Source: an uncultured Gammaproteobacteria bacterium | GTDB lineage: Bacteria > Patescibacteriota > Patescibacteriia > Magasanikbacterales > GWA2-37-8 | Assembly (NCBI GenBank): GCA_964634875.1 | Contig: CAZWKA010000001.1 | Location: forward strand, 37,600 to 101,599 | Direction: 5' to 3' | Length of the DNA stretch: 64,000 nucleotides | In this document: positions 3,757 through 54,865 of the stretch, in pieces | Layout: each line of letters opens with the position of its first letter | Numbering within the stretch: the first letter of the stretch is position 1 | Program-made: the position numbers and the translations under genes | Notes under the pieces: model-generated | The model's input: only the letters and a program-made list of their open reading frames with translations | Told to the model about the DNA's origin: nothing | Databases searched by the model: none

Positions 3757-3851
3757 AATACTAATGCCTGGGTGTTCCTTGCGCGCGCAGGGATACGTTG
3801 AAAAGTAGGTTCAATTTTTAGCTATACATAGCAAAAAATTGCTTACAATTC

Positions 3852-3880
3852 TTGACAAGAAGCTGTGAATATAGTTAAAT
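3852..3880 (+). promoter_or_regulatory. sigma70-like promoter TTGACA-17nt-TTAAAT
   Basis: TTGACA 3852-3857, 17-nt spacer, TTAAAT 3875-3880, about 25 nt upstream of small ORF ATG. Confidence 0.4.
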
Positions 3881-3905
3881 ACAAACTTAATTGCTATCGG
3901 TTCAT

Positions 3906-3995
3906 ATGGAGTCTAGTTCACTGGACGACCCTGACCCTATCACAGTACAGCTGATCAGTCGGGGTAAGGAAACAAAAGATTTGCTTAACCCATAA
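3906..3995 (+). CDS. Unannotated 29-codon ORF (MESSSLDDPDPITVQLISRGKETKDLLNP): candidate leader/precursor peptide
   Basis: ATG..TAA in frame, absent from the 60-aa-minimum ORF track; sits between a good promoter and a terminator-like hairpin directly upstream of the ATP-grasp gene; no SD, but backbone genes here generally lack one. Confidence 0.3.
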   Translation: MESSSLDDPDPITVQLISRGKETKDLLNP

Positions 3996-4032
3996 CCCAA
4001 ACAGAGTTACCTGTTTGGGTTATTTATTTTTG
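3994..4032 (+). terminator. Intrinsic-terminator-like hairpin (possible attenuator) overlapping small-ORF stop codon
   Basis: AACCCAAACAG-agttac-CTGTTTGGGTT 11-bp perfect stem followed by ATTTATTTTTG. Confidence 0.5.
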
Positions 4033-4041
4033 TTAATTATT

Positions 4042-5319
4042 ATGGAGCGAGCGCTCAATGGTTCAACAGTGCTTTTGGTGCATGCCGGTTCATTAAGCAA
4101 GCAATTCATCCTCGAACGGGCGAAAGCGCTCGGTGTCCGCATCATTTGCTTGAACAAAAAAAAGGAAGCTTTTGCCGAGCCTTTTGTTGATCACTGGATT
4201 TTTGCTGACCTCAAAGACGAAACAAGCTGTTTTAAAAAAATTACAGAGTTTATCGTAGCTCACGCGGATATTAAAATTGATGGAGTAATTACCTTTTGGG
4301 ATGAATCCGTTGTTCTCGCCGCACACATCTCGGAACAATTTTGCTGGATAGGTATTTTGTCAAAAACAGCTGACCGGATTAAGAATAAATATGCTTTTAG
4401 GGATGCCTGCCAAACCGAGGGTATTCCCGCCCCACACCACCTCCTGCTCAATACCGAAGCTGACTTGGCGAAGGCTGATGCGGAGCTTGAATACCCAGTG
4501 GTGGTAAAACCGGTATACGGCGCCAGCAGTGCGTTTGTGGTACGCGCCGACAACCTTTCGGAATTAACGACTGTCTATAATGATCAAATTAAAAATATCC
4601 ATACGTTTTGGTTAGCACCAGAATGGAACAGTCTTCAGGTGTTGGTTGAAGAGTATATTGACGGCCAAGAAGTTGATATTGATATCCTGGTTCAGAACGG
4701 GGAAGTTAAATATATTTCGATTATTGATAATAAAGAAACCAACGAACCATTTTTTGTTGAAACAGGCTGGTCGTCTCCTTCGAGATTGGGAGCGAAAGAA
4801 CAAAAAGAACTGGAAGCGATGGCAGTTTTTACCCTGAAGGCGCTCAAGGTAGAGAATGGTTGCGTTCACTTTGAAGCGAAATATGGCAGCAAAGGTGCTG
4901 TACCGATTGAGATTAATTTGCGCATGGGCGGTGGAGAAGTGTACCTCTATTCCAAGCTCGTCTGGGGTGTTGATCTGGTTGAAAATGCCCTGAAGATTGC
5001 GCTCGGCCTGCCAGTTGTTATTGATAAGCCCGATAAACCGATCTGTCATCTGCTCTCGTATCGTTTTCTTCCGGAAAAAACCTGCAAACTGACTAAGCTC
5101 CGCGTTGATGAGGCGGTGTACGGTCAGTCCTCGGTAGTAAGTTTGTATTTTGAAAAACAAGTTGGCGATATTTTTCTAGCGCCGCCGGAAGGGTATGACC
5201 GCTGTATTGGTGTCATTACGGTAAAAGGTGAGAGCCATGTTGCCGCAGAAGAAAATTTGGCCAAAGCCCTAAAGTATATTAAATACGCCGTCGAACCACT
5301 TAATCACATCACTATTTAA
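4042..5319 (+). CDS. ATP-grasp domain ligase (L-amino-acid-ligase / carboxylate-amine ligase-like)
   Basis: ATP-grasp motifs VEEYIDGQEVDIDIL and IEINLRMGGGEV; about 425 aa from ATG 4042 (track ORF 4015 start overlaps the upstream hairpin). Confidence 0.8.
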   Translation: MERALNGSTVLLVHAGSLSKQFILERAKALGVRIICLNKKKEAFAEPFVDHWIFADLKDETSCFKKITEFIVAHADIKIDGVITFWDESVVLAAHISEQFCWIGILSKTADRIKNKYAFRDACQTEGIPAPHHLLLNTEADLAKADAELEYPVVVKPVYGASSAFVVRADNLSELTTVYNDQIKNIHTFWLAPEWNSLQVLVEEYIDGQEVDIDILVQNGEVKYISIIDNKETNEPFFVETGWSSPSRLGAKEQKELEAMAVFTLKALKVENGCVHFEAKYGSKGAVPIEINLRMGGGEVYLYSKLVWGVDLVENALKIALGLPVVIDKPDKPICHLLSYRFLPEKTCKLTKLRVDEAVYGQSSVVSLYFEKQVGDIFLAPPEGYDRCIGVITVKGESHVAAEENLAKALKYIKYAVEPLNHITI

Positions 5320-9692: not shown

Positions 9693-9805
9693 CTGGTGGG
9701 CGGGCAATTACTTCACCCTGCTACCCACAGACTCAGTAGGTTGAGTGTGTGGGTAGGGGCAGGGCGAGGCGGTGCTCGCGGGTGAGTAAGGACGAGAGTT
9801 GTTCG

Positions 9806-10192
9806 TCAGCGACGAGGGGCGTGCCAGATCTGCACGTGGCGGATCTGCTCGGTCCGGAGGCTCTGGTAGGCCTCGAAGGTGAGGTTGCGCTGCATGACCG
9901 TGATGATGGCCAGGGCGAGGAACAGCATCGCGAGCAGGAGCGTGAGCAGGTTGAGGTGGGTCTTCATCTGGCGGCCCTGGGTGGTCAGGGCGCTGACCTG
10001 GGTGAACAGGGTGTTGACCTGTGTCGTCTTGGTCGCGAGGTCGGCCTCGAGGGCGGCGATGCGGCGCTGCTCGGGGGTGGGAGGCTCGGGCGGCGTCAGC
10101 TTGTGCTCGCCGGTGTCCTTGGGCTCCGGCGGCGACAGGTCGATTGTGTCGGGGGCCTTGGTTCCGGGGTTTCCGCTCTGGTCGTTCATCAC
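9806..10192 (-). CDS. GC-rich Pro-rich / coiled-coil / C-terminal TM-anchored hypothetical protein
   Basis: High-GC ORF with SD (CAGGAGctacagtgATG); PPEPKDT..PPEPPTPEQ low-complexity N-term, heptad-like middle, hydrophobic LLTLLLAMLFLALAIITVM. Confidence 0.5.
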   Translation of the reverse strand: MMNDQSGNPGTKAPDTIDLSPPEPKDTGEHKLTPPEPPTPEQRRIAALEADLATKTTQVNTLFTQVSALTTQGRQMKTHLNLLTLLLAMLFLALAIITVMQRNLTFEAYQSLRTEQIRHVQIWHAPRR

Positions 10193-10396
10193 TGTAGCTC
10201 CTGTTTGCAGTTGGGGGCAGCAGAGGCTCTAATAAGATATGTTTTATTAGAACTTTCGCTGCCCAACGAGCTTACAAGAACGTGTTACTATAGCACAAAA
10301 CAAGGTTTTCGTCAAGGGGTGTAGGGTATTTTTTGGCTAAAATAAGGCAAAAAATAAAAAACAGCCCTGTGTTTGAGCTGTCTTTTGAGCGATTCC

Positions 10397-11944
10397 TTAT
10401 TTCATTTTATCTCGTAAAAGTTTCTCCGCTACTTGTGGGTCGGCGCTGCCTTCGGTGGCTTTCATGAGCATGCCAACCAAGAACTTGATAATTGGTTCCT
10501 TGCCAGCCTTAAATTGAGCTACTTGTTCTGGATAATTTTTGATTATTTCGTCAGCAACTGTTCCAAGTTTGCCTTCGTCACTAATTTGGCCGTACCCTTT
10601 TTCTTCCATAATATGTGTTGGATCTTTGTCTACACCTGATTCGATCATTTCAATCAGGATTTTTTGAGCATTGGTAGCGTTGATTCGATTGGTGTAAATC
10701 AAAGCCATGAGTTCAGCAAAATTTTCTGGTTTGACGCGCAGAATGCGAATGTCGATTTTACGCTCAGCCATGGCACCCATGAGTTTGCTTGTCATCCAGC
10801 CGCCCGACAGTTTAGCGAGCTCACGTTGTTTTTGTGCGGTCAGTTCTTCGGCGGCTTCCTTGCTTTCTGGTAAATGACGTAGCCAGTCGATAAGTTCGCT
10901 AACGACCTGTTCAGTAAATTCAGCCCAGTCACGGTCGCTCGTCAAAATATGGGCATCAGCTTTTGAAAAACCATATTCACTACAAAAACGGAGACGCTTG
11001 GCTTGTGGTAGCTCGGGGAGTGAAAGCGCGTCTGCTAGCTTGGCGGGGTTGAAGGGCGGAATATCGGGCTCGGGGAAATAACGGTAATCGGCAGCTGATT
11101 CTTTGGTGCGTTGATGTGCTGTGCCTTGTTTTTTTTCATCCCAGCCGCGTGTTTCCGGCACCCAGCTTTCACCTTTTTCAATAAGTTCGGTTTGGCGTTT
11201 GATCTCAAATTCAATTGCCTTCTCGACGGCGCGGAATGAGTTGATGTTCTTTACTTCAACTTTTGAGTTAAGGGTGACGCCTTCGCTTGGTACGATGACT
11301 CCGTTCTGGTTAGTGAAGCTTCCCTCGTACTGAACAGAAACATTGGCTTCGCAGCGCATCTGGCCTTTTTCCATGTCAGCGTTGCTGACTCCAAGGGTGC
11401 GGAATAACAGCTGTAGTTCTTGGCAATAGGCTTTAGCTTCAGCAGCGCTTTGTATGTCCGGATCAGAAACAATTTCTACGAGAGGTACTCCAGCGCGGTT
11501 AAAGTCAACGAGCGCCGTTCCGCTAGCCGCGTGATTAAGCTTGGCAGTGTCTTCTTCCATGTGGACACGGGTAACGCCGATGCGTGCGGTTGAGCGATGG
11601 TTCGTTCCGGCTATTTCAAGTTCGATTGTGCCGTGTTCGCCAATCGGCTGGTCGTACTGTGAGATTTGGTAACCCCTGGGAAGATCCGGGTAAAAATAAT
11701 GTTTGCGGTCGAACTTACTTTCTGTCGCTATCGTGCAGTTAAGCGCGCGTGCGATTTTGATCGCGCCTTCAATGCCGGCCTGGTTGGGTACGGGTAGAGT
11801 GCCTGGGTGGGCAAGACAGACTTCGCAGATGTTCGTGTTGGGTGTATCGATGAAGGGGTCGTTCACACACGGACAAAACATCTTGGATTTCGTCTTGAGT
11901 TCTACGTGGATTTCAAGACCGATGATCGGGATAAGTTGGGGCAT
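10397..11944 (-). CDS. gatB: Asp-tRNA(Asn)/Glu-tRNA(Gln) amidotransferase subunit B
   Basis: 515 aa; N-terminus MPQLIPIIGLEIHVELKTKSKMFCPC typical of GatB, C-terminal YqeY-like domain. Confidence 0.95.
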   Translation of the reverse strand: MPQLIPIIGLEIHVELKTKSKMFCPCVNDPFIDTPNTNICEVCLAHPGTLPVPNQAGIEGAIKIARALNCTIATESKFDRKHYFYPDLPRGYQISQYDQPIGEHGTIELEIAGTNHRSTARIGVTRVHMEEDTAKLNHAASGTALVDFNRAGVPLVEIVSDPDIQSAAEAKAYCQELQLLFRTLGVSNADMEKGQMRCEANVSVQYEGSFTNQNGVIVPSEGVTLNSKVEVKNINSFRAVEKAIEFEIKRQTELIEKGESWVPETRGWDEKKQGTAHQRTKESAADYRYFPEPDIPPFNPAKLADALSLPELPQAKRLRFCSEYGFSKADAHILTSDRDWAEFTEQVVSELIDWLRHLPESKEAAEELTAQKQRELAKLSGGWMTSKLMGAMAERKIDIRILRVKPENFAELMALIYTNRINATNAQKILIEMIESGVDKDPTHIMEEKGYGQISDEGKLGTVADEIIKNYPEQVAQFKAGKEPIIKFLVGMLMKATEGSADPQVAEKLLRDKMK

Positions 11945-11997
11945 AGACGAAGATAAAAAGTACTGGGATACTATCAGTTTAGGCTTCTTTTGGCAAA

Positions 11998-12028
11998 TAA
12001 AAAATCCCGGAATTCTCCGGGATTTTTG
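11998..12028. terminator. Bidirectional intrinsic terminator
   Basis: A-run, ATCCCGGA-attc-TCCGGGAT, T-run. Confidence 0.6.
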
Positions 12029-12038
12029 TGTCTACTAG

Positions 12039-12860
12039 TTAGGTGCGAGAAGCACTGGCCGTGGGCATTTCTGCGACAGGAACAGGCTTGCTGCGGACAT
12101 CGAGGTATATGAGGACGATTGCTATAGTCGCAAGTGGGGCGGCAAAGGCTGAAGCTAGGCTGCTCATAACACCGACAACCATAGTCAGAACAACTTCTGA
12201 AGTGCTAACCGTGCGCCCGGCCTCTTGGAACGCGGCGACCTCTGGGCTATTCATAGAAATCAAGATCGTGAAGGGGGCGGTAAAAGCGAGGATGATAATG
12301 CTGACTAAGAGTCCAAATAAAATACTGGTCACACCTACTCTCCAGGCGATTGCCCACCAGCGCCCTTTGACGAGTTGCTTGCTGTAGCGCAAGGCTGCTA
12401 AGCCGCGCTGTCCGTCAAACAGGGTGGCGTAAGCACCGAAGACGTAATAAACGCTGAAAATAATACCGGGGATAATGAGGAGCAGTGTCCAAAGGCCTAC
12501 AAAGATGCTGGTAAGGAATGAAACCCAGAACACCGGTATCAACGAACCTTTAATGTTCATCATGCCTTGTTTCCAGGGTAGGGTTGGGCGTCCTTCGGCG
12601 ATGTCTTTGATTGCTTGGGCAAGTGCAAGCATGGCCCAGAAACTAATAAACCAACTGCAGAAACTGAGGATTACGGTAATGATGCTATTGAGCAAGTTCG
12701 TCGTTGGCAGGATAGTAGAAAGATAAGCGCTGCCGAGGCCGAGTAAAGCGAGGACTGCGCCAGGGACAAAGACCACAGCAATATACGGCAAAATAGTGCG
12801 CCAATTTTTGCCGTAGATACTAAAAGTCATTCTCAGGATCTCGGTTACTTTAAGGAGCAT
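12039..12860 (-). CDS. Polytopic membrane protein (DUF975/glycerophosphodiester-phosphodiesterase-membrane-domain-like)
   Basis: 273 aa, 6-7 predicted TM helices, no catalytic motifs recognised. Confidence 0.5.
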   Translation of the reverse strand: MLLKVTEILRMTFSIYGKNWRTILPYIAVVFVPGAVLALLGLGSAYLSTILPTTNLLNSIITVILSFCSWFISFWAMLALAQAIKDIAEGRPTLPWKQGMMNIKGSLIPVFWVSFLTSIFVGLWTLLLIIPGIIFSVYYVFGAYATLFDGQRGLAALRYSKQLVKGRWWAIAWRVGVTSILFGLLVSIIILAFTAPFTILISMNSPEVAAFQEAGRTVSTSEVVLTMVVGVMSSLASAFAAPLATIAIVLIYLDVRSKPVPVAEMPTASASRT

Positions 12861-16838: not shown

Positions 16839-17162
16839 TTATTCCAGGTTGTGGGTGTAGTCGTTCAAGAGTGGTGTGATGCGTTCTGCAATAAGCTTGT
16901 CCCAGGTTGTAGGTGGGTATTTATTTTGGACAAACTGGAGCAGTTCTTCGTACTTTCTTTGTTCCGCCAGGCCCTGCATTTCTAGTTTTTCGTCATCGCC
17001 AAGCCATTTGTGTGCATCTTCGAGAATGGTTAAAAAAATGATCGTCGAAAGTTCGGTTGTATATTTTTGTTTGTCAGCTGCTGACAAAGAGTATTGTTTG
17101 AAAAGTCCGTCAAAAAATTGTTGCAGTGTCATACAATGGGCTAAATAGTTGTTTTTGACCAC
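16839..17162 (-). CDS. Hypothetical protein
   Basis: Backbone-composition ORF, no recognisable motif. Confidence 0.35.
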   Translation of the reverse strand: MVKNNYLAHCMTLQQFFDGLFKQYSLSAADKQKYTTELSTIIFLTILEDAHKWLGDDEKLEMQGLAEQRKYEELLQFVQNKYPPTTWDKLIAERITPLLNDYTHNLE

Positions 17163-17509
17163 TGTTCATGGTTGCGCTCGTCCTTGGCCCGTTTCATCCG
17201 GACTGCGCCTGCCAGACTGAGACTCATTAAAGTTGCAGGTATGGCAAATGGAATGGCGGCAGCAGGATCTTGTTCCACATCATCCAAAGTAACTTTTTTG
17301 TCGACATAGGCTTCCTCTCCTTCTTCCCGGGTCAGGTCGTGTGCTCCGATATAGCCGGTTGCGAGCAGGAGCGGCATCATCATTTCCATTGTTCTTAGAC
17401 CCACTTTATTTTTTTGAAGCCACTTTTTTATCCAGCTATCATGTTTTTTGCTGGGAAAATCACTTTTATTTTCCTTGTGTTCCGAGGCGTTTTCACGGGA
17501 ATGAGCCAT
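17141..17509 (-). CDS. Hypothetical single-pass membrane protein
   Basis: Central hydrophobic helix MMMPLLLATGYIGA.. ; no motif. Confidence 0.35.
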   Translation of the reverse strand: MAHSRENASEHKENKSDFPSKKHDSWIKKWLQKNKVGLRTMEMMMPLLLATGYIGAHDLTREEGEEAYVDKKVTLDDVEQDPAAAIPFAIPATLMSLSLAGAVRMKRAKDERNHEQWSKTTI

Positions 17510-17663
17510 AGAGATGGTGATGAGGTGCTAAGGTTAAATTTGGCTAATTGTAGCCAATAACACATGTAGTATAGCACATTTTTAGCATTTTGTCAATGGT
17601 AAATTGGCCTAGATCGTTGACAATAGAGCCAAAAAATGCTAGGGTCAGGTGTGTTCTTTTACA

Positions 17664-17716
17664 GTTTGGAATCTAAGATAGTTGGCGCTCACGGTGAGTG
17701 CTGAAAGCGAGGAAGC
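17664..17716 (+). promoter_or_regulatory. Conserved upstream element of lipoprotein cassette 1: motif GTTTGGAATCTAAGATAGTTGGCGCTC + hairpin + partial SD
   Basis: Near-identical motif copies at 18374-18400 and 19058-19084; hairpin GCGCTCAC-ggt-GAGTGCTG with one G-U wobble (17684-17703). Confidence 0.5.
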
Positions 17717-18220
17717 ATGAGAGTTAATGTCTTGGGTGTTCTGAGTGTCCTAGGGCTTCTTTCGGGCTGTGTTCATCAGCCCGATCTGCGCCCGCCGCTT
17801 GGATCAGAAGAGGTCGAGCGGATGTATGCGCAAAACGAGATTGATTGTGTCGAGGCGCCCTGGCGATACTGCATGGTCGCCGCCTTTGCGCAGTTCAAGA
17901 TGCCGAACTACGGGACGGAGGGGCGGGAAGGCCTTGCCGCCGAGATCGGTGCGGCTGCTTTCGTTGCCGACGATGGCTCGCCCAACGAGGATTGGTTTGG
18001 CAAGCTCCGGCGTGAGGTCGGCAAGCTGAGCCTCGGCGAAGTCAAGTTGGAAGAGGCCGATTCGTCCGACTTCGGAGCGATCCCCAAGGGACGCGCTGCT
18101 TTCCTTGTGTTGAAACACCGGGATGGTCGTGAGTTCTTCTTCATGATTACCCCGAGCAGGCATGGGGTGGTCTACGGTTTTAACAACAACCGGTGGATGC
18201 GAGCCGCTACCACCCCGTAA
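17717..18220 (+). CDS. GC-rich lipoprotein 1 (lipobox LLSGC)
   Basis: Signal peptide MRVNVLGVLSVLGLLSGC; high GC; SD GAGGAAG. Confidence 0.6.
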   Translation: MRVNVLGVLSVLGLLSGCVHQPDLRPPLGSEEVERMYAQNEIDCVEAPWRYCMVAAFAQFKMPNYGTEGREGLAAEIGAAAFVADDGSPNEDWFGKLRREVGKLSLGEVKLEEADSSDFGAIPKGRAAFLVLKHRDGREFFFMITPSRHGVVYGFNNNRWMRAATTP

Positions 18221-18272
18221 CTTCTGTGTAGCTCACCCCCCCCCCTCGCTCACTTCCGAGCGCCACTACTAT

Positions 18273-18433
18273 CCTAGGTTCTAAAAAGTTATTTTACAAT
18301 TTTATACATTACAGTAGTTGGCGCTCGTAGTGCTGTGCCTACTGAAGCGTATAAAACGCCCTTTAAAAATCAAGTTTATAATCTAAAGTAGCCGGCGCTC
18401 CCAGTAAGAGCGCTTTGCTAGGAGGAAATTACA
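18273..18433 (+). repeat. Intergenic repeat unit (block B CCTAGGTTCTAAAAAGTTATTTTACAAT + two copies of the TAGTTGGCGCTC-hairpin block) ending in AGGAGG SD
   Basis: Shared blocks with 17640-17716, 19022-19109, 19766-19828, 20385-20400. Confidence 0.55.
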
Positions 18434-18961
18434 ATGCGATTGAGAAGTGCTGCTCTCGTGATTGGTCTGGTTTTTCAGGGCTGTGCCCACCTGTCGAACA
18501 CGGATGATTCTTCCCCCAAAAAGGAAGCGGCCACGACGCCGGATGGAGGCATCTGCTACCGGCCCCGGCTCAATTATGGAGGGTATGAATATCTCAATGT
18601 GGAGGGTGGCGTCTATCCGCCGTATTACTACGTCCGGCTCCCAGGCGGCAACATGCCCGAGTTTACTCGGCTGCTCCATGCTGCCGAGTATGAGGTGACC
18701 CGCTGGGCCGATGACCACATTGAGGAGCTCGACAAGGGGTGCCATACGACCCCTGAGGGCTTGAACGTCCGCATCGAGGTCTTCGTGGCGAAAACGCCTG
18801 ATGGTCAAAGCTATGTTACTCGGGCAGAGTTCGTTGCGCCTCCCGTGGTTGGTAACCGGCGGCGGGCCTGGGGAAAGCCTGGCCAGTATGTGCTCAGTGA
18901 GGTTGGAACCGTGCTCGACGCCTCGCTTGAAGCGCTCCTGACCGAGATCCCCCACAGCTAA
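18434..18961 (+). CDS. GC-rich lipoprotein 2 (lipobox VFQGC)
   Basis: Signal peptide MRLRSAALVIGLVFQGC; AGGAGG 8 nt upstream. Confidence 0.6.
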   Translation: MRLRSAALVIGLVFQGCAHLSNTDDSSPKKEAATTPDGGICYRPRLNYGGYEYLNVEGGVYPPYYYVRLPGGNMPEFTRLLHAAEYEVTRWADDHIEELDKGCHTTPEGLNVRIEVFVAKTPDGQSYVTRAEFVAPPVVGNRRRAWGKPGQYVLSEVGTVLDASLEALLTEIPHS

Positions 18962-19021
18962 TCGTTCCTCGCAGCTCCTAGCGACTCACCGCCTCATTGT
19001 GGCGCCATCGCGAGCGCCGCC

Positions 19022-19109
19022 CTACTTTAGGTTATAAACATGCCCTTTAAAAATTACGTTTAGAATTTAAGGTAGTCGGCGCACGGAGCGTCGAAGGAGA
19101 GAAGAGAAA
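19022..19109 (+). repeat. Intergenic repeat unit copy (GCCCTTTAAAAATTACGTTTAGAATTTAAGGTAGTCGGCGCAC + hairpin + GGAGAG SD)
   Basis: About 85% identical to 18357-18400. Confidence 0.55.
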
Positions 19110-19703
19110 ATGTTGCTTCGCAAGGATTTATTTTTGGCTATAGCTATAGTTGTCAGCGGTTGCGCCTCGCGAGGTGTGGTTATCGAAGCTCGCCCGGATG
19201 ATCTGCCGAGCGTGAACGGGCATGAGTGTACGGGCCCTGGCTGGACGACCGTTTCGCCCGACCCCATTACCGTCGAAGACAGCAGCGGGGTGATCTGCCG
19301 GAAGGGCGGCTATCACGTGATCGTGAACGCTAGCTCTAGCGGCCAAGGCGTGGCGTCGTATGTCACGTGCCCGGCTGGTTTTGCCTCGGATAGCCAGGAG
19401 TGGAAGAATGGCCTCGTCAGGGCTGGTATCCTGAGCTGTTACAAGGATGGTCCGGATGAGACTCTGCTGGTCTGCCAGATCAATTCCGTGACGATACAGA
19501 CGAGCGCGTGCCCGGTAGACGAGCTGAAGACCTGGGAGCCAATCAAGAGGGGTATGAGCCCTGCCGCTCGCTCGAAGTGTGCGCCGCAGCAGTGTGCTTG
19601 TCGTGACTACACTGCCTTGGAGGTTCTGCGGCACGTGAAGGTCGATGCGCGTCCGGAGTGTTGCTCTGACTACTCTGGTCCATCTTCCGGCTGCGGTGAG
19701 TAA
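19110..19703 (+). CDS. GC-rich Cys-rich lipoprotein 3 (lipobox VVSGC)
   Basis: Signal peptide MLLRKDLFLAIAIVVSGC; 14 Cys in mature part. Confidence 0.6.
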   Translation: MLLRKDLFLAIAIVVSGCASRGVVIEARPDDLPSVNGHECTGPGWTTVSPDPITVEDSSGVICRKGGYHVIVNASSSGQGVASYVTCPAGFASDSQEWKNGLVRAGILSCYKDGPDETLLVCQINSVTIQTSACPVDELKTWEPIKRGMSPAARSKCAPQQCACRDYTALEVLRHVKVDARPECCSDYSGPSSGCGE

Positions 19704-19765
19704 CCGAACCTAAGCTCCAGACCACCACCCCTTCCGAGCGCAATCGCTTGCGTTCGCCGTCTCTA

Positions 19766-19828
19766 CCTTAGATTCTAAAAAGTTCTTTTACAATGTAATT
19801 ATTTGGAAATACATAGTGGGAGCAGCAG
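19766..19828 (+). repeat. Intergenic repeat unit copy (CCTTAGATTCTAAAAAGTTCTTTTACAAT...)
   Basis: Block B copy, 26/28 identical to 18273-18300. Confidence 0.5.
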
Positions 19829-19855
19829 TTGTACCCAACACAAAGGGGGTCTCAG

Positions 19856-20332
19856 ATGCACGTACGAAATGGTTCCGTGGTCGCCGCAATGTTCACTGTT
19901 TTGCTGGTTCTGTCTGGGTGTTCGGCCATGTTTGTTGGTGCGCCTAGTCGGACAAGCACCGAGTGGCTTGGCTGGTACCATAACCAGACCCAGAACATGT
20001 TGATCACGGTCGGCGACGAAAAGGCTGATCTAAGTGCTAGCGATGAGCGGCGCACGTCATATGTTGCCACTGCGTCGCTTCAGTTTGACGGCATGGTGAA
20101 AGGTACCTTTGCGCACGAAGAGATATGTGTTTCGTTCACTATGCCTGCCACAGACGACAACACCCCGATCTATCGGCGCATCATGATCGGTCGACGCACG
20201 CACGGTATCACCCCGGAGTTGCCCGTTGGCCACCTGACCATCGTCGAGTGTGCCTCACCATCTGGAGCCATTGTCGTTGATCTATACGCTGCCCCGCACA
20301 GCCAGGGAGTACTCGTCGGATCACTGCCATAA
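19856..20332 (+). CDS. GC-rich lipoprotein 4 (lipobox VLSGC)
   Basis: Start at ATG 19856 (GGGGG SD 9 nt upstream) giving MHVRNGSVVAAMFTVLLVLSGC. Confidence 0.55.
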   Translation: MHVRNGSVVAAMFTVLLVLSGCSAMFVGAPSRTSTEWLGWYHNQTQNMLITVGDEKADLSASDERRTSYVATASLQFDGMVKGTFAHEEICVSFTMPATDDNTPIYRRIMIGRRTHGITPELPVGHLTIVECASPSGAIVVDLYAAPHSQGVLVGSLP

Positions 20333-20391
20333 TTCCAACTCCACCCCATCAATGGCACCCCTGCTGCCCTTCTCCACTATGGTTTCTAAAT

Positions 20392-20431
20392 AAAAAAATA
20401 TCCCGGACATTTGTCCGGGATATTTTTTTAA
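20392..20431. terminator. Bidirectional intrinsic terminator shared by lipoprotein array (+) and rplA (-)
   Basis: AAAAAAAT-ATCCCGGACA-tt-TGTCCGGGAT-ATTTTTTT perfect palindrome. Confidence 0.7.
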
Positions 20432-20440
20432 GAAGATTTT

Positions 20441-21121
20441 TTATTCTTCACTCGCGATGCGGATTGCAGGACCCATCGTGGTGCAGATGATCAGGTTTAT
20501 AAGGTACGTGCCTTTGGCCGTGGCTGGCTTAGCGCGCTTCAAGACATCCAGGAAAGCAGTCAAGTTTTCTTTGAGTTGAGTCTCGGAGAAGCTTACTTTG
20601 CCGATCGATTGGTGGATGTTGCTGGTGTCGTCGTTTTTGAAAGTAATCTTACCTTTTTTCAATTCTTCGATCATTTTTTTGATGTTCGGACTAACCGTTT
20701 CGGTTTTAGGATTCGGCATCAAACCTTTCGGACCAAGTACTTTGGCGACGCCAGCGAGTTTGGACATCATGTCTGGTGTTGTTACGGCAACATCAAATTC
20801 GATTTTACCAGTATCTTTGATGCGTTTAATGTCTTCTTCGCCGTAGACAAAATCTGCCCCAGCGTCTTTGGCTTCTTTTTCTTTTTCAGCCGAAACAAAA
20901 GCGGCTACTTTTTTGGTTTTACCAGTACCGTGCGGAAGCGAAGCGCTGGCGCGAACCTGTTGTTCACCTTTCTTTGGATCAATACCAAGGTGGGCGTGGA
21001 CTTCTACGCTAGCGTCAAATTTAACGCCGCTGGTTTCGCGGACGAGCTTGATTGCGTCGTCCCAGGAATACACGCGGGTTTTGTCGATTTTCGCGGCGAT
21101 TTCCTTCATTCGTTTGTTCAT
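20441..21121 (-). CDS. rplA: 50S ribosomal protein L1
   Basis: MNKRMKEIAAKIDKTRVYS.. through ..TMGPAIRIASEE; the 312-aa track ORF is an upstream read-through into GC-rich DNA, trimmed to ATG at 21121. Confidence 0.9.
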   Translation of the reverse strand: MNKRMKEIAAKIDKTRVYSWDDAIKLVRETSGVKFDASVEVHAHLGIDPKKGEQQVRASASLPHGTGKTKKVAAFVSAEKEKEAKDAGADFVYGEEDIKRIKDTGKIEFDVAVTTPDMMSKLAGVAKVLGPKGLMPNPKTETVSPNIKKMIEELKKGKITFKNDDTSNIHQSIGKVSFSETQLKENLTAFLDVLKRAKPATAKGTYLINLIICTTMGPAIRIASEE

Positions 21122-21264: not shown

Positions 21265-22164
21265 TTAGGAAAGGCTGGGTGCTCCGGCTGTGCTGAATTT
21301 GCGCCGCGGCCTGAGATCCCAGATGATGTGGCAGCGTGCGAGCAGCCACAAGAGGTAGTAGGAGAGGTCGATCTGCCACCAGTGGTGACCCTGACGCGCC
21401 GCTGACTTGTCGTAGTGGTGGTTGTTATGCCACCCTTCGCCCATCGTCAGGAAGGCGATCAGGGCATTATTTCGGCTTTCGTCGCCGGTCTGGTAGGGCT
21501 TAGTGCCCCAGACATGGGCCAGACTATTCACCATAAACGTGGCATGCCAGAAGACGAGTGTCGAAGCGCCCATCCCGATCACGACACCGCTCCAGCCTGC
21601 GATCAAGTAACAGAGGCCTGTCAGTAAGAGGGGCGGCAGGTAGTGATAGTGGTGGAGCCAGTGCAGCTCTCTGAACTTAGCGAGATCCTTCACGACAGCT
21701 AGATCAGTGTGGCCGCGTTCAGCGTCACCGAGCCAGCCCACATGTGCCCACCAGAGACCGCGTTGGACAGGCGAGTGGACATCCTCAGGCTGGTCGGCGA
21801 ACTGGTGGTGTCGGCGGTGGTGCGCCGCCCACCAGAGCGGGCCTTTCTGTACGCACATACACCCGAAGAACGCGATCAGAAACTGGACGAAGCGACTGGT
21901 CTTGAAGGACCGGTGGGCGAAGTACCTATGGTACCCCGCAGTAATGACAAACATGCGCGTCCAGTAGAGCACGATAGCCAGGGCTACTGCCCGCCCGGTG
22001 ACGCCTGTCCAGATGGCAAGGATTGGTACAAGATGGATTGCTCGAAACGTGATCCAGTTTAGCCAATCGGTGGCTTTGGGCAGGACTTTGATTTCCGCTT
22101 CCATGGTGAATGGTGCCTCAACTTTCTTGGGCGTAATGATAGTCTCGGTAGTCGTGAAAGTCAA
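21265..22164 (-). CDS. Membrane fatty-acid (acyl-CoA/acyl-lipid delta-9-type) desaturase, GC-rich
   Basis: Three His boxes HRYFAH, HRRHH, HNNHH with 4 TM segments; start ambiguous (TTG 22164 or ATG 22104). Confidence 0.8.
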   Translation of the reverse strand: MTFTTTETIITPKKVEAPFTMEAEIKVLPKATDWLNWITFRAIHLVPILAIWTGVTGRAVALAIVLYWTRMFVITAGYHRYFAHRSFKTSRFVQFLIAFFGCMCVQKGPLWWAAHHRRHHQFADQPEDVHSPVQRGLWWAHVGWLGDAERGHTDLAVVKDLAKFRELHWLHHYHYLPPLLLTGLCYLIAGWSGVVIGMGASTLVFWHATFMVNSLAHVWGTKPYQTGDESRNNALIAFLTMGEGWHNNHHYDKSAARQGHHWWQIDLSYYLLWLLARCHIIWDLRPRRKFSTAGAPSLS

Positions 22165-24003: not shown

Positions 24004-25725
24004 ATGACATTCCAAGAAAGTTATCGTTGTGCGCTCTTGTTTCTTGTCCTTGCCGCTTGCGGCGTGGAAGGGGTCTTTGTTCCAGGATATGTTCATCCGG
24101 ATGGTGAACCGCCGAGTACGCCTCCGGCTGGTCAAACCCGCTCGCCATCACTGGATCTTTCCAGTATTTGTCGGGATCTGCCGGCTGTTCGCGCACCGCT
24201 TGACGAGACTCGGTGGGGCGAGGCGCTCTGGAAGCCGCTCATCGCGGATAACATCGTCGAGTACGTGCGGTTGAGGGGGCTAACGACGACGGACCAGGTC
24301 GGTCACGCAAGTCAGGTCCCGCTCATCAACGATCTCCACGAGCCAGAGCGAATGCGCCGGGCCATCCGGGAGTTTCTAGGTGACAGTCTGAAAAACACCT
24401 GTGTGCCGATTTTGCCCAAACTCGATGCGCACGATCTCGGTCTTACCGAAGCGCAGAAGGAGCTCGCCCACATTCATCCATTCGAGGATGGTAGCGGCTT
24501 TTACCAGGAACCCTGGCTCGTCATGGCAAACGGGAATCCGCCACGTGAGACGCGGGTTCGGGTGTTGCGACTCACGATGCAGAACCTGATCGGCAACCAG
24601 AGCCAGGCGTTCGTGCTCGTGCCTACAAGTCCCGGGCCGCACCCGGTAACACTCGTCGCCCACCAGACGCTGGCGAAGTGCGGCGCACGTGAACCGGTCG
24701 GTGCGTGCACTCCCGAAGAAGACGGTCTCCCGTGGCAGGCACTCGCCATGAAACTGGCCGGTGACGGTTTTATCGTTATCGCGCCTGACATGATTGGGTA
24801 CGGTAGTGCTTATGATCCGGCGGTTTTGGTTAGCGAATACGACTCAAAAGAGATGCAGCGGATCCGCCAATACTTTCCGAACATATCGGTGATGGCAGTC
24901 GAGATGATCCAGCTTGAGCGTTTCGTCAAAGCGCTCTACCAGCTCGGGGACGCTGGCCACTTCAAGATAAAAGGGAAAAAGATTGCCATTGCCGGTCACT
25001 CCAAGGGTGGCTACCTTGCCGTTCTGTTTGCAGCGCTCTATCCAGAGTTCGTCAAAATTGTCTTCTCGAGCGCGGGAGCTTTCAACTATCCGCTCAAGGG
25101 GCCGTATGGCGACGATCTCGGATTTACTGAAGCGAAACCGTTGCTGCTTGGTATTGACGGACGTATCTGTGGTTGGGGGTACTCCCAGGCCGAGTGTGCT
25201 TTTGCTGGACGAAACCAGCGCTACCTCGCCATCGACTTCCCGGTTCTGGTTCGCGCCATGCTCGGGCAGGGGCAAGCGGTCTACCTTATTGCCATCGAAG
25301 ACGATCGGCTCTACCGCATACCAGCTGTGGAGCAGATTCGTCTTGCGGGCGAAGAAGGGGCGCGTCAGGCTCGTCTGGTTGGCGGCGAATTCTGGTACGG
25401 CATTGTGGAAAGTGGTCTGAGGGACGGAGACGGTAGCGCCTGTCGAGTGAAAGCCGAAATCCAGCACGAACAAAACCAGCTCGCCTGCGAAGATGAGCCC
25501 GAAGAAACTGATCGGGAATTCTGCTCTGGCAAGAGTGACCACGACTACTACCGCGAGATCTTCTTCTGCCAGCTCGTCCACGGGCGGAACCACGGCATCT
25601 ACTACGATCATGTTAACAGAGGTCTCGATGCTATCCGCCGCGTGATGCAGACGGACGTGGTCCGTGACTTCACCGGCGAAGTCTACCGCTCGAACGGTTC
25701 ACCTCGCAACTATCAGTCCTTCTAA
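24004..25725 (+). CDS. GC-rich secreted alpha/beta-hydrolase (esterase/lipase-like) lipoprotein
   Basis: Signal + lipobox LVLAACG; nucleophile elbow GHSKGG; GGGGG SD. Confidence 0.65.
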   Translation: MTFQESYRCALLFLVLAACGVEGVFVPGYVHPDGEPPSTPPAGQTRSPSLDLSSICRDLPAVRAPLDETRWGEALWKPLIADNIVEYVRLRGLTTTDQVGHASQVPLINDLHEPERMRRAIREFLGDSLKNTCVPILPKLDAHDLGLTEAQKELAHIHPFEDGSGFYQEPWLVMANGNPPRETRVRVLRLTMQNLIGNQSQAFVLVPTSPGPHPVTLVAHQTLAKCGAREPVGACTPEEDGLPWQALAMKLAGDGFIVIAPDMIGYGSAYDPAVLVSEYDSKEMQRIRQYFPNISVMAVEMIQLERFVKALYQLGDAGHFKIKGKKIAIAGHSKGGYLAVLFAALYPEFVKIVFSSAGAFNYPLKGPYGDDLGFTEAKPLLLGIDGRICGWGYSQAECAFAGRNQRYLAIDFPVLVRAMLGQGQAVYLIAIEDDRLYRIPAVEQIRLAGEEGARQARLVGGEFWYGIVESGLRDGDGSACRVKAEIQHEQNQLACEDEPEETDREFCSGKSDHDYYREIFFCQLVHGRNHGIYYDHVNRGLDAIRRVMQTDVVRDFTGEVYRSNGSPRNYQSF

Positions 25726-28097: not shown

Positions 28098-29159
28098 TCA
28101 GAGAGGAACTATAGTCATCCAGTCGTGCGGATCGGAGTCCGGCGCGCGCTGGATGCTATGGTAGCGATCGAGCAGAAGACGTGGCACGGCATGCTCGGCG
28201 CTGGTTGGGATGAAGGCCTGGTCGCTGCCCCGGACGAGCTCGGTAACAGCACAGATGGTGGCCGCAGTGCCTGTGCCAAAGAGCGAGTGAAGGCGACCTT
28301 GACTGTATGCTTCGAAAAGCTCGTCGACGGTGAGGCGGCGTTCTTCCACTTTCCAGCCAGCTTCGCGAAGCAGAACGATCGCGGTTTCGCGCGTCTGACC
28401 CGGAAGAATGGTGCCATCGAGTTCGGGGGTAACAACAGTGTCGCCAATAACAGCGAAGAGGTTCATTGATCCCATCTCACCGCAGAACTGGTGCGTACGG
28501 TCAGTCCAGAGCACCTGCCCGTAGCCGTCTTCTTTGGCAATGGCTGTGGCATCGATCGCAGCGGCGTAGTTGGCACCGGCTTTGACCTCGCCGAGTCCGC
28601 CCTCTGATGCGCGCACATGCTCTGTTTCGACTTTGATCCTAAGACCGTTCTGGCCGTAGAGGCTCATGATCGGTGAGGCGATAACGATAAGCAAGCACTC
28701 GTTGCCCGGGTCGATGCCGAGGTAAGGCTCGGTACCGAGAAGCAGCGGGCGGATATAGAGCGAACAGCCCGGTTCCGGAAGTGCCCAGCTTGACTCGATC
28801 TTGATGTACTCGAGAATCGCCGTGGCCAGATCATGAATTTCCGGGCACGGTAGACGGAGTCTCGCGGCACTTTTTCGAAAGCGCTTGAGGTGTTCGTAGA
28901 ATCGAAATATCCGCACACGGCCATCGCTGCCCGGGAAGGCTTTAAAACCGTCAAAAGCAGTTTGCGCATAGTGAACGCCGCAGGCTGCCGGCGAAATCGA
29001 GATGTGTTGATGGGGCTGCAAATGGCACGGCCCCCAGCCACTCGTGCTCGTCCAGCGCATCACGAGCATGTGGTCGGTGAAAGTACGCCCAAAGGGGAGT
29101 GGTTTGCCGGCCACAGGCTTTTCTTTTGGCTGCAAAACAAGATCGGTAACGAACTGCAT
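28098..29159 (-). CDS. ilvE: Branched-chain amino acid aminotransferase (class IV PLP enzyme), GC-rich
   Basis: FGRTFTDHMLVM N-terminal motif, class-IV fold length 353 aa; strong SD AGGAGGTG. Confidence 0.8.
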   Translation of the reverse strand: MQFVTDLVLQPKEKPVAGKPLPFGRTFTDHMLVMRWTSTSGWGPCHLQPHQHISISPAACGVHYAQTAFDGFKAFPGSDGRVRIFRFYEHLKRFRKSAARLRLPCPEIHDLATAILEYIKIESSWALPEPGCSLYIRPLLLGTEPYLGIDPGNECLLIVIASPIMSLYGQNGLRIKVETEHVRASEGGLGEVKAGANYAAAIDATAIAKEDGYGQVLWTDRTHQFCGEMGSMNLFAVIGDTVVTPELDGTILPGQTRETAIVLLREAGWKVEERRLTVDELFEAYSQGRLHSLFGTGTAATICAVTELVRGSDQAFIPTSAEHAVPRLLLDRYHSIQRAPDSDPHDWMTIVPL

Positions 29160-31878: not shown

Positions 31879-32122
31879 AGTATTGATTAGTACACGAGAA
31901 CGTATACTATCACGAAGTACTCGTGGTTCAAAATTGGCTAAGATACAAGCATTTTCGCCCAACATCCTTGACAAAACCTTGTTTTTATGCTAGGGTGCAT
32001 GATCCCTTAAACCGAGGGAAAGTTCTTTTATAATCACCAACTCCTCGAGCAATCGAGCGGTTGGTTTGGTAAGTATTGTAAGTATTTTCCAGACCAAACC
32101 GTTCGATTCACCAAGGAGTATG

Positions 32123-32887
32123 CCTATGAGCGCCGCGACCATTACTGCTGACCACGATCCGCCCCCGGCCTCCCTCGCCCAGTCGCCCGCCACTGAGCTG
32201 GACACGCCCACGAGCGTGGAGACTTCCACCGACAAAGCGGCAGATCCGCCGGAGGATGAGCCGTTCTATGTTCGGCTGCAGAAAATTGGTGGGGTGAACC
32301 CCGAAGCCCCGCTCCGCAAGGTCCCGCCGTCCCGGCCGTTCGTTTTCGAGCTCGAAACTCCTGCTGAACCGCCTATCCATAAGGCGGATATACTGGTTCC
32401 GCTCGGGAGCGTGCCCGCATCCAATGAGGCCGACGACCCGGCTCTGTGGCTTCCGCAGACGTCGCGGCTGCAGCTGTTGCTGCAACGCCCGAAGGAGGAG
32501 CTCGCGCGAGTGCTACAGCTCTGGCAGCAGCGCTACCACCCCGCCATCGTGCTGCTCTCGTTTCTGCTGATTGTCTTTGGTTTGGGTCTCATCTGTTCGG
32601 CGAGTGTCGGTATGGTGCTCGCCTTCCAGACCAAGCTCCGGGATCTGCAGGTGTCCTCCGCTACCACGGAAGCCGCTCTGCGCGCCAGGATCAGTCAGCT
32701 CGAGACCCAGAGTACAGCTCCCATCGCGAAGTCGCCGACCCGCGAAGAGCTCGAGATGCTCGAGTACGCCCGCTGTAGCAAGGCACTCGGCGAGGCGCTC
32801 AAGCCGCCGCTGACGATCGCGCGCCAGACGAACCTCTGCCGAAGCGAGTACCAGCAGCGTACGGGTCGCGCGTTTGTTTCGCGCTGA
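32123..32887 (+). CDS. GC-rich Pro-rich N-term / single TM / coiled-coil hypothetical protein
   Basis: AAGGAG SD 7 nt upstream of ATG 32123; TM IVLLSFLLIVFGLGLICSASVGMVLAF; architecture mirrors 9806-10192. Confidence 0.5.
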   Translation, partial: PMSAATITADHDPPPASLAQSPATELDTPTSVETSTDKAADPPEDEPFYVRLQKIGGVNPEAPLRKVPPSRPFVFELETPAEPPIHKADILVPLGSVPASNEADDPALWLPQTSRLQLLLQRPKEELARVLQLWQQRYHPAIVLLSFLLIVFGLGLICSASVGMVLAFQTKLRDLQVSSATTEAALRARISQLETQSTAPIAKSPTREELEMLEYARCSKALGEALKPPLTIARQTNLCRSEYQQRTGRAFVSR

Positions 32888-34822: not shown

Positions 34823-35000
34823 AGGTTGGTGAAGAAAAAGTAATTATACATATATAACACGCGAAGCTAAGGAGCGCAACTGCCAGGGTTAATTGAAAAA
34901 AAGGATTACATAGATGGGTTAACCCTTTACAAAACTGCCATTTTGTGCTTAGCTGGTAGGACCAAGCTGATCAGTGTGATTGGCAAAACCTAGGAGGTAC

Positions 35001-36080: not shown

Positions 36081-36196
36081 TCGCCGTCCCAATCCCCCTT
36101 TTTTGATTTTTCATCGAGGGGCGCAAAAAAACAGGCCCCTCTTCCTTTGTCTCTAAAATTTTTAGAAATAAAGGCAGGGCCTGTTTTTTATTTTTG

Positions 36197-45863: not shown

Positions 45864-45982
45864 AGTTTAAATAGTTTAGTGTGTATATGTATAGCATAGG
45901 ATGGTGCTAGTGCAAAGCCGTGTTCATTGACAAAGAGAAAAGGGTATGGTTTGGTGGAGAAAACTCCAGCGTGAGGATTCCA

Positions 45983-46426
45983 ATGCCAGCAAGCCAAGTA
46001 CAGTCCGCCCCAACTGCTGATTCCGCTCCTGCACGTGAGCGGCGGCGCGTGCTCGTGCGCTCCCTCAACCGAGCCTTTGACGCCCTCCAGATCGGCAAGC
46101 TCACCGAGCAGGATCTGGTGGATGCCTGGTTCTTGGTGGAGGAGGATGAGGACGTCAGCTTCTATGGAAACTACTACCTCACCGGCCAATGGCCTTCGGT
46201 GCGCCATCGGGTCAACGCCCATATCCTTCGCCGGGCCCTCGTTCGCGCCAACCAGGACGGGCGAGTGGTTTGGAAGAATACCAGAGAAAATTTGGCCGAT
46301 AAATTCAACGAGCTCCTCATCAAGAACGGCTGCGCGTCGCTTCCTCCCCGCTCCGGGTTTCAGCAGGCACTGGCTATGTCAGCCTTGGTACTTAGGTGTG
46401 GTGTTGCTCTGAGGCTCATCAGCTAG
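45983..46426 (+). CDS. GC-rich hypothetical protein
   Basis: GAGGA SD 7 nt before ATG 45983. Confidence 0.4.
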   Translation: MPASQVQSAPTADSAPARERRRVLVRSLNRAFDALQIGKLTEQDLVDAWFLVEEDEDVSFYGNYYLTGQWPSVRHRVNAHILRRALVRANQDGRVVWKNTRENLADKFNELLIKNGCASLPPRSGFQQALAMSALVLRCGVALRLIS

Positions 46427-49277: not shown

Positions 49278-49430
49278 AAATGTACTATTTAGTACAAATT
49301 AAATATGTCAGTATTTTAGCTTATTATAGTTATTTTAGTAAAGTTAATAGTTACTAACTACAGTATATGTACTTTTTATACCATAAAAAGAGATGCAACG
49401 TGTAGGATGACTGCAGACAAGGAGGGCACT

Positions 49431-54737: not shown

Positions 54738-54837
54738 TGTTTTCTCCTCTAGAAATTATAGGGAATTTTTCATGCCCCGTGCAGTTCTCTTTTTAAAAAA
54801 GAGAGCCGGACGGGAGATGAACTAAATTGTGGTGCAT

Positions 54838-54865
54838 AAAACCTCCGCGGTAACGGAGGTTTTTG
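54838..54865. terminator. Bidirectional intrinsic terminator
   Basis: AAA-CCTCCG-cggtaa-CGGAGG-TTTTT. Confidence 0.6.

Follow-up and report, generated by a model that had tools for sequence, protein, structure and literature searches.

The locus analysed in this study raises the question of why consecutive lipoprotein genes with unrelated mature products should be set in a non-coding frame that is repeated from gene to gene. The genes, designated lp1 to lp4, lie on a 64,000-nucleotide (nt) stretch of DNA, referred to here as the window (GenBank assembly GCA_964634875.1, contig CAZWKA010000001.1, positions 37,600 to 101,599), in a metagenome-assembled genome that is placed by its rplA relatives in Candidatus Magasanikbacteria, within the Patescibacteria or candidate phyla radiation (CPR). 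They represent a lineage-specific operon of two to four rapidly evolving secreted lipoproteins that was inserted into the rplA–dcd interval of a small clade of Magasanikbacteria. Every open reading frame (ORF) in the array is bracketed by its own inverted repeat, with a 5' arm immediately before the ribosome-binding site and a 3' arm 30–65 nt past the stop codon, and it is this cassette-specific complementarity, rather than a repeated spacer, that any explanation of the locus has to address.

An earlier inspection of the same DNA, made from the letters alone and referred to here as the sequence-only reading, proposed four consecutive plus-strand lipoprotein ORFs, and this was confirmed by matching to the lipoprotein signal pattern, with each N-terminus being basic, followed by a hydrophobic stretch and then a lipobox (four of four). 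The gene lp1 (17717–18220) encodes 167 amino acids (aa) with the lipobox LLSGC, lp2 (18434–18961) encodes 175 aa with VFQGC, lp3 (19110–19703) encodes a Cys-rich product of 197 aa with VVSGC, and lp4 (19856–20332) encodes 158 aa with VLSGC. The GC excess that had been pointed out in these genes is real, with GC contents of 0.55–0.59, and 0.61–0.68 at third codon positions (GC3), against 0.42–0.49 GC in the neighbouring genes. None of the four has a Pfam family match, and their mature sequences are unrelated, as had been supposed; only the signal peptides can be aligned using BLASTP and hhalign, with the families of lp1, lp2 and lp3 showing no hhalign relationship past that point. At the DNA level, lp1 and lp2 share a mere 15 nt of similarity, around the lipobox, and the conservation that runs through the array ends at the start codon. 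Searches of approximately 15 billion proteins with lp1, lp3 and lp4 returned clade members only, plus two weak matches to lp1, and lp4 is otherwise without a homologue apart from a weak colinear match (24% over 128 aa) to gene X of the relative R, described below. As judged by sequence comparison, then, the lipoproteins are orphans. The AlphaFold2 model of lp1 was of moderate quality (pLDDT, the predicted local distance difference test, of 66.6) and gave no significant fold match in the PDB, the top match, to a CdiA-CT/CdiI complex (E 0.7), being meaningless, and the model of lp3 (pLDDT 40) was unusable.

The repeats around these genes exceed chance, as had been claimed for the spacers: a 25-mer consensus has three matches where 0.00 are expected, and an nhmmer profile recovers five copies (E values from 1e-12 to 1e-19), with no other match in the 64 kb. 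The third of the three blocks that had been described is indeed doubled in spacer 1 (18297–18331 and 18371–18405). The statement that five spacers share all three blocks was too strong, however, since in three of them (the first, the fourth and the fifth) one block or more is missing or degraded. Upstream of gene 1 there is no block 1, and what looks like block 2 is the -10 region of the promoter; downstream of gene 3 the third block is present in degenerate form only, and downstream of gene 4 there is only half of block 2. A repeat search revealed what had been missed, namely that block 3, which makes up the 5' arm, is the reverse complement of blocks 1 and 2, which make up the 3' arm. The element is more aptly seen as an inverted repeat that surrounds one ORF and is specific to that cassette than as an attC-like unit of the spacers. 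A hairpin formed within the spacer was considered as the unit as well, and was dropped for pairing between own partners, as it folds well in only two of the five spacers.

The arms are 25–30 bases long, and the duplexes between own partners span 22–29 bp, with energies of -27 to -40 kcal/mol. The 5' arm of lp1 (GTTTGGAATCTAAGATAGTTGGCGCTC, 17664–17690) pairs with its 3' arm (GAGCGCCACTACTATCCTAGGTTCTAAA, 18258–18285) at -35.4 kcal/mol, and in the minimum free energy (MFE) fold the two lie in a helix of 34 pairs (17661–17700/18251–18289). For lp2, the 5' arm (GTTTATAATCTAAAGTAGCCGGCGCTC, 18374–18400) pairs with the 3' arm (GAGCGCCGCCCTACTTTAGGTTATAAAC, 19012–19039) at -40.0 kcal/mol, with an MFE helix of 28 pairs (18371–18400/19012–19042), and it is followed by a small hairpin (18394–18414) and then by an AGGAGG ribosome-binding site (18420–18425). 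The arms of lp3 (GTTTAGAATTTAAGGTAGTCGGCGCAC, 19058–19084, and GTTCGCCGTCTCTACCTTAGATTCTAAA, 19752–19779) pair at -34.9 kcal/mol, with an MFE helix of 27 pairs (19061–19089/19746–19777). The 5' arm of lp4 (..ATTTGGAAATACATAGTGGGAGCAGCAG, 19795–19828) departs from the family consensus and is complementary to the 3' arm of its own cassette (CTGCTGCCCTTCTCCACTATGGTTTCTAAATAA, 20361–20393), with an MFE helix of 25 pairs (19801–19826/20363–20391); its duplex with that partner reaches -34.8 kcal/mol, against -19.7 or weaker with the other arms of the window.

That the arms are matched within cassettes, and not simply similar across the array, was evident from an all-against-all duplex matrix in which each 5' arm was set against each 3' arm for 12 cassettes from four genomes. 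With orthologues set aside, each arm pairs best with the other arm of its own cassette, the one exception being an empty cassette, and in none of the four genomes does any other permutation do as well as the assignment to own partners (1 of 120, 1 of 6, 1 of 2 and 1 of 2). Mean duplex energy is -32.7 kcal/mol for own partners, compared with -21.2 kcal/mol for adjacent spacer hairpins (range -13 to -31). In the divergent cassettes, which are lp4, X, Y and the L002 genes A and B, the arms are unlike the family consensus and mutually complementary. The arms of lp2 read TATAA/TTATA where those of lp3 read TAGAA/TTCTA, and the matched pair is kept both in the window and in R. As structure is conserved over sequence, a nucleic-acid helix fits better than a protein-binding site.

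The same pattern emerges when no pairing is imposed. In the unconstrained MFE fold of the predicted transcript (17652–20432), all four window ORFs are enclosed by own-partner helices, as are both ORFs of the L088 array, with helices of 19–40 pairs across the two. In a duplex-energy scan of all ORFs in the window, lp1 to lp4 rank first to fourth for complementarity between upstream and downstream flanks; a generic scan of other loci for flank complementarity was uninformative, GC-rich loci and palindromic terminators dominating the results. The proximal 3' untranslated regions (UTRs) are C-rich (C 0.41, G 0.17) and have CUCC/UCCCC motifs in eight of nine cassettes, and the MFE fold pairs three of the four Shine-Dalgarno (SD) regions of the window with such 3'UTRs. 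The 3'UTR of lp1, which is C-rich and G-poor in its proximal part, includes a C10 tract (18236–18245, plus strand) that represents a potential slipped-strand site, although it is identical in one independent contig, with no length variation.

The cassettes lie behind a single sigma-70-like promoter (17617–17645), composed of TTGACA (17617–17622), a 17-nt spacer ending in TGC, and TAGGGT (17640–17645). The same layout of -35, TGn extension and -10 precedes the first cassette in R, L088 and L002. This promoter was omitted by the consensus promoter scan because TAGGGT matches the consensus at three of six positions. No plus-strand promoter inside the array was listed by that scan, and internal sigma-70 promoters were rejected: the hexamers in the 3' arms (TAGGTT/TAGATT) are only 14–15 nt from any -35-like hexamer, and those in the 5' arms (TATAAT/TAGAAT), as read from the sequences, have no acceptable -35, with none at 16–18 nt. 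Downstream, the array ends in a bidirectional intrinsic terminator (20391–20430), onto which the lp4 3' arm abuts. Its 19-nt arms are fully complementary (fold z = -5.9), it is common to the array and the convergent rplA gene (20441–21121, minus strand), as had been anticipated, and it is kept in relatives, including L003, which has no array.

Between these two ends, the cassettes are joined by a conserved A/T-rich linker of 14–18 nt, which occurs in the window as two variants. Variant A is found at 18286–18299 (AAGTTATTTTACAA) and 19780–19794 (AAGTTCTTTTACAAT), and variant B at 18357–18373 (CGCCCTTTAAAAATCAA) and 19040–19057 (ATGCCCTTTAAAAATTAC), and the linker in R reads ATGTTCTTTAAAAATTAA. 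The leader contains a related linker (GTGTTCTTTTACA, 17651–17663), compared with those of R and L088, which aligns with the inter-cassette linkers. In addition, the promoter -10 region and leader together (17640–17663, GCTAGGGTCAGGTGTGTTCTTTTACA) align with a 3' arm and linker (18273–18299, CCTAGGTTCTAAAAAGTTATTTTACA), and the promoter-proximal unit may be derived from, or have recombined with, a cassette boundary. Between lp1 and lp2 lies an empty cassette (18300–18356), in which a 5' arm (18300–18326) and a 3' arm (18339–18356) are separated by 12 nt (18327–18338) and no ORF. When read from the sequences, its 5' arm matches the arm before Y in L088, and its 3' arm (CTACTGAAGCGTATAAAA) is similar to the sequence flanking Y on the 3' side (CTACTGAGTTTCGTAATAAAA); this cassette looks like the ghost of a Y-like gene.

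The array is found only at the rplA|dcd junction, and only in a clade of approximately six genomes; the dcd cluster at 90% identity has six members, which are the entire known clade. In more distant relatives, as well as in the close relative L003, the gap between rplA and dcd is 53–133 bp, and this short gap, with no array, is the ancestral state. The window carries lp1, the empty cassette, lp2, lp3 and lp4. Relative R (JGI 3300045392-98, SRR237024xx) carries lp2 (49% aa identity), lp3 (67%) and X; the L088 group carries lp1 (approximately 49%) and Y, a paralogue of lp3 (26–28% identity); and L002 carries two other lipoproteins, A and B, with arms that have diverged yet are still complementary. 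L003 has no array, despite being the closest relative of the window in its core genes (88%). The sequence-only reading asked whether strains differ through gain, loss or shuffling of cassettes, and array-bearing genomes do differ by whole cassettes being present or absent; gene order is colinear throughout, and neither a shuffled order nor a cassette in a second context was seen among the roughly five genomes known. All 12 cassettes from the four species are co-oriented in the promoter sense, likewise every recovered contig (R, n = 11; L088, n = 5). That the repeats could be an assembly artefact, a concern raised with the original description, was rejected, as an independent Logan contig is 100% identical to the window array over 4,659 bp and the same architecture is present in three other species.

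Comparison between species shows where the constraint lies. Synonymous sites have reached saturation in the comparison of the window with R (dS 1.2–2.5), and yet the arm and 5'UTR together are identical at 53 of 59 positions for lp2 and 47 of 50 for lp3 (90–94%), the 3' arms at 24 of 27 and 25 of 27, respectively (89–93%), the linker at 19040–19057 at 15 of 18, and the promoter at 24 of 29. The proximal 3'UTRs are the least conserved (36 of 48 for lp2, with large length differences, and 25 of 46 for lp3). Across species, arms, 5'UTRs and linkers are 83–94% identical, whereas the proteins are 24–67% identical. Within the L088 species, a pair of strains has no differences in 418 nt of non-coding sequence (promoter, spacer and terminator), whilst lp1h differs by 8% (dS 0.20, dN/dS 0.26) and Y by 2.9%. 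The non-coding frame around the ORFs is thus under strong purifying selection. The ORFs have dN/dS values of 0.2–0.4 (0.38 for lp2 against its R orthologue) and are therefore real, mildly constrained genes, evolving several times faster than core genes. The earlier description of diverse cargo in a conserved non-coding frame is borne out, since the frame is conserved and the coding content is both diverse and fast-evolving. In the comparison of two strains of the L088 species, L094 and L093 (locus coordinates 3482–5000), divergence peaks sharply at lp1h (8% of DNA, dS 0.20) and rplA (3.2%, dS 0.15), whilst dcd, ribE and ribH differ by 0.2–1.1% and all non-coding parts of the array by 0%, a pattern suggesting that alleles are imported by recombination, with the conserved frame as anchor.

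The explanation favoured here, as a tentative one that falls a little short of being probable, is that the whole array is expressed as a single polycistronic RNA and that a long-range helix closes each cistron, governing its processing, stability or translation. The arms of a cassette lie approximately 0.6 kb apart, and sustained selection for their pairing is most simply explained on RNA; it is this spacing, together with the conserved complementarity, that leads us to favour a stem-closed polycistronic transcript. The single conserved promoter, the single terminator and the uniform orientation of cassettes in four species are consistent with it. The array would be transcribed from the sigma-70-like promoter to the terminator common with rplA, and the flanks of each cistron would pair in the RNA to form a closing helix of 22–29 bp, so that the transcript would consist of successive ORF loops, each closed by a stem, with single-stranded A/U-rich linkers between them. 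These helices may be substrates for an RNase III-type, double-strand-specific RNase, or may act as clamps that protect ends, and the linkers may be sites for a single-strand endonuclease. The precursor would in this way be cut into single-gene mRNAs with both ends remaining base-paired. Each helix would also draw the C-rich 3'UTR near the SD sequence of its own gene, and the stability and translation of each lipoprotein mRNA could thus be set cistron by cistron. Over evolutionary time, the cassette content would shift through recombination between homologous linkers and arms.

Several observations weigh against this explanation. In R, the MFE fold pairs the 5' arm of lp2 with the 3' arm of lp3, and own-partner closure is seen in only one of three cassettes. 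The duplex is more stable in the sense orientation in seven of ten cases, with 16 G-U pairs in sense and 13 in antisense, which is a weak test of strand, and the helices are almost fully Watson-Crick. A role at the DNA level fits the complementarity of the arms equally well. RNAalifold gave -4.6 kcal/mol and no compensatory pairs for six spacer units, a result that applies to the adjacent spacer hairpin and not to pairing between own partners. As to SD/anti-SD pairing, the 3'UTR of a gene's own cassette performs no better than shuffled or foreign partners, the complementarity being compositional and not specific to the cassette. Furthermore, the sequence conservation of the linker and the cassette-precise insertions and deletions are explained equally well or better by DNA recombination in the linker: the junctions of gain and loss lie in or beside it, a pure RNA model requires neither feature, and the empty cassette has kept both of its arms.

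These last observations are accommodated by a model of gene cassettes with hairpin sites, integron-like in action but not an integron, which is considered unlikely. Once a cassette is excised as a circle, its 3' arm, the linker and its 5' arm would adjoin one another and form a single hairpin that serves as the recombination site, and crossover in the conserved linker would insert or excise cassettes, leaving the arms split around the ORF. This would account for the best match lying within a cassette while the junctions of the array are hybrids, for the linker being the most uniform element within a genome, for cassette-precise differences in presence and absence, and for the existence of an empty cassette. 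It would also account for two further features read from the junctions, as the first unit of R resembles the left half of unit 0 of the window fused, within the linker CTTT, to the right half of the unit preceding lp2, and the last 3' arm meets the terminator at an identical point in every array genome. The ORFs, moreover, are co-oriented, apparently promoterless, small, orphan and GC-skewed, behind one upstream promoter.

Signs of mobility are, however, lacking in the material searched. No recombinase domain (Phage_integrase, resolvase) was found in the 27 window ORFs scanned, the array being flanked by dcd and rplA, and no transposase was seen in the window. No repeat copies were found by nhmmer in the loci of 80 Magasanikbacteria and Patescibacteria, the 5'-arm pattern had no matches in genome_contigs, and the 3'-arm pattern had three chance matches in metagenome_contigs and none in viral_contigs, so that no extra unit copy was recovered from the 64 kb, the 80 related loci or two public collections. 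Order is colinear in all genomes, and no cassette occurs in a second context. Vertical divergence down to 24–67% identity implies that any mobility is rare, and rare mobility would not keep the arms complementary; attC core sites are also absent. On these grounds, mobility of the kind known from the recombination-prone families to which the sequence-only reading likened the array is not supported. We regard as rather improbable the more specific form of this idea, in which the arms and linker would be a previously undescribed CPR site for cassette recombination, with crossover at the apex of the hairpin (at the base in attC) and an unlinked recombinase adding, removing or flipping genes singly.

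An ordinary operon, arising through tandem duplication of one lipoprotein gene with its UTRs and divergence of the coding parts beyond recognition, is likewise rather improbable. The arms would then be separate 5' and 3' elements (a leader or internal promoter, and a 3' stabiliser), their complementarity being inherited or maintained by gene conversion with no function in pairing. Duplication within the array does occur, as the paralogy of Y and lp3 demonstrates, and orthologues diverge extremely fast, lp4 and X being only approximately 24% identical. All members are lipoproteins of 157–197 aa with similar GC contents, linker variants are shared by units of the same genome, a sign of concerted evolution, the -10 region of the promoter can be aligned with a 3' arm, and the 5' arms hold the TATAAT/TAGAAT hexamers mentioned above. 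Independent drift would nonetheless erode complementarity, and would not create the matched, cassette-specific arms that lp4, X, Y, A and B have; the internal hexamers have no acceptable -35 at the required distance, and the families of lp1, lp2 and lp3 are related by hhalign through the signal peptide alone. The sequence-only reading contrasted its cassettes with a simple operon having duplicated UTRs, for which the repeat would be confined to this locus and every relative would keep the genes in identical order; the repeat is indeed restricted to the locus, but the gene set is not kept by every relative.

Inversion switches acting gene by gene, in which the arms would serve as recombination sites that flip single genes relative to one promoter and give combinatorial on/off surface variation, are very unlikely, because although near-perfect inverted repeats of 22–29 bp flank each ORF, surface lipoproteins are a classical substrate of phase variation and recombination between inverted repeats tends to homogenise both arms, all 12 cassettes and all recovered contigs are in the promoter sense, no invertase was found nearby, the arms vary between cassettes in a way unexpected for one site-specific invertase, no promoter lies on the far side, and the conserved linker is left unexplained.

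When compared with known systems, the layout of the array appears to match no described system found, which agrees with the initial impression that it fits no attC, diversity-generating retroelement (DGR) or vlp architecture; the closest would be mRNAs with paired 5' and 3'UTRs, amongst which the fold-back inhibition of hok is counted, and the processing helices of rRNA. Precursors of rRNA are processed by RNase III at helices formed by the flanks of each rRNA, and the array is similar in that each unit of a predicted polycistronic precursor is enclosed by a helix of its own flanks, with short spacers between units. It differs in that the units are protein-coding cistrons of 0.5–0.6 kb, for which cleavage is predicted only. 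Amongst single-gene messages, 5'/3'-UTR pairing in Staphylococcus aureus icaR makes an RNase III substrate and blocks the SD sequence (PMC3868564), and a 14-bp 5'/3' interaction in Bacillus subtilis hbs modulates cleavage by RNase Y (PMC5737220). As with icaR, hbs and hok, the array has complementary 5' and 3'UTR segments in one message, here predicted in silico, and, as with the icaR/hbs type, in which the duplex is a substrate or modulator of an RNase, a C-rich 3'UTR motif would face the SD sequence. The predicted helix of the array is longer (22–29 bp, against 14 bp in hbs), lies outside the SD sequence, and is repeated for each cistron and co-evolved cassette by cassette.

Resemblance to integrons, and to clusters of attC sites lacking integron-integrases (CALINs), extends to co-oriented small orphan ORFs behind one promoter with imperfect palindromes between them, cassette-precise presence and absence, an empty cassette and GC skew. 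In contrast to those systems, the best-matched arms are split around the ORF instead of contiguous on its 3' side, no IntI was found in the 27 window ORFs, and no shuffling or spread was seen among the roughly five genomes known. Assignment to an integron or CALIN was rejected, as the outer boxes are GAGCGCC/GGCGCTC and not RYYYAAC/GTTRRRY, with AAAC..GTTT occurring only beside the linker and off consensus (TATAAAC, GTTTAGA). In Bacteroidales, the rAID-1 arrays combine a series of small genes with repeats in the intergenic regions and a skewed GC content (bioRxiv 10.1101/471110). The present array shares these three features, but it has no XerD-family recombinase among the window ORFs and no detectable immunity-gene homology, has only two to four genes, and is vertically inherited at a fixed chromosomal site. 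In the variable lipoprotein loci of Mollicutes (vlp, vsp, vsa, mpl), lipoprotein genes stand in tandem, with their non-coding modules conserved and the mature products divergent, and the same layout is seen here, also in a host-dependent bacterium with a reduced genome. Unlike these loci, the array has no homopolymer or tandem-repeat switch in promoters or coding regions (Tandem Repeats Finder detected no tandem repeats, and the C10 tract in the 3'UTR of lp1 is the sole homopolymer), no invertible promoter, no conserved signal-peptide exon and no mixed gene orientations. Finally, passenger cassettes bounded by terminal inverted repeats, such as mobile insertion cassettes and elements resembling miniature inverted-repeat transposable elements, carry such repeats around a cargo gene in the absence of a transposase. 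The array is like them in this respect, but the tips of its arms differ between cassettes, target-site duplications are not clearly present, and neither further copies at other sites nor a matching insertion sequence element was found. Comparison with Rfam 15 gave sub-threshold matches only, driven by the terminator at 20352–20454.

Some further observations concern annotation and the surroundings of the array. The GC-rich lipoprotein genes carry long antisense ORFs, such as one of 190 aa at 18383–18955 on the minus strand and another at 4253–4804 of L093, and in one public contig the gene caller chose the antisense ORF over the lipoprotein gene; automatic annotation of array loci is unreliable. 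Between dcd and the array promoter are two minus-strand ORFs (16839–17162, 107 aa, and 17141–17509, 122 aa) without a convincing Pfam family, which have their own promoter (TTGACA-17-TATACT, 17596–17568) and are present only in the window genome, being absent from R, L088, L002 and L003. On the other side, a fatty-acid desaturase gene (21265–22164, minus strand, GC 0.59) is inserted between rplA and ribE; it is absent from this junction in R (L082), was not detected among the 80 related loci, and looks like a recent horizontal acquisition. In the more distant Magasanikbacteria locus L013, a different insertion is present at rplA|dcd (10681–12117), including a GC-rich, Cys-rich, lipoprotein-like ORF on the opposite strand, and this junction may be a general hotspot for surface-protein genes.

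The genome as a whole is a mosaic, with many genes of GC 0.57–0.65 (GC3 up to 0.85) in a backbone of 0.42–0.50. Examples in the window are found at 9749–10324, 24004–25725, 28098–29159, 32066–32887, 34971–36092, 45920–46426, 49407–50210 and 53673–56339, and none of these has the array repeat. The second of them, a lipoprotein-like alpha/beta hydrolase, appears to be kept in R and L088, where ORFs of similar size occupy the same position. As some high-GC genes are apparently conserved in relatives, high GC content has therefore been retained over a long time by accessory genes here, and does not only mark very recent transfer.

Members of the CPR are believed to be attached to host cells, a contact for which their surface lipoproteins are prime candidates, yet almost nothing is known of how such lipoproteins are regulated or diversified in these bacteria. 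At this locus, the structure of the non-coding RNA or DNA is far more constrained than the proteins that it frames. Should the array act at the DNA level, it would represent a new cassette or switch system. Should it act through RNA, it would be, to our knowledge, the first operon whose cistrons are each clamped separately by 5'/3' pairing, and it would extend the single-gene cases of icaR and hbs to an operon-wide design resembling the processing of rRNA.

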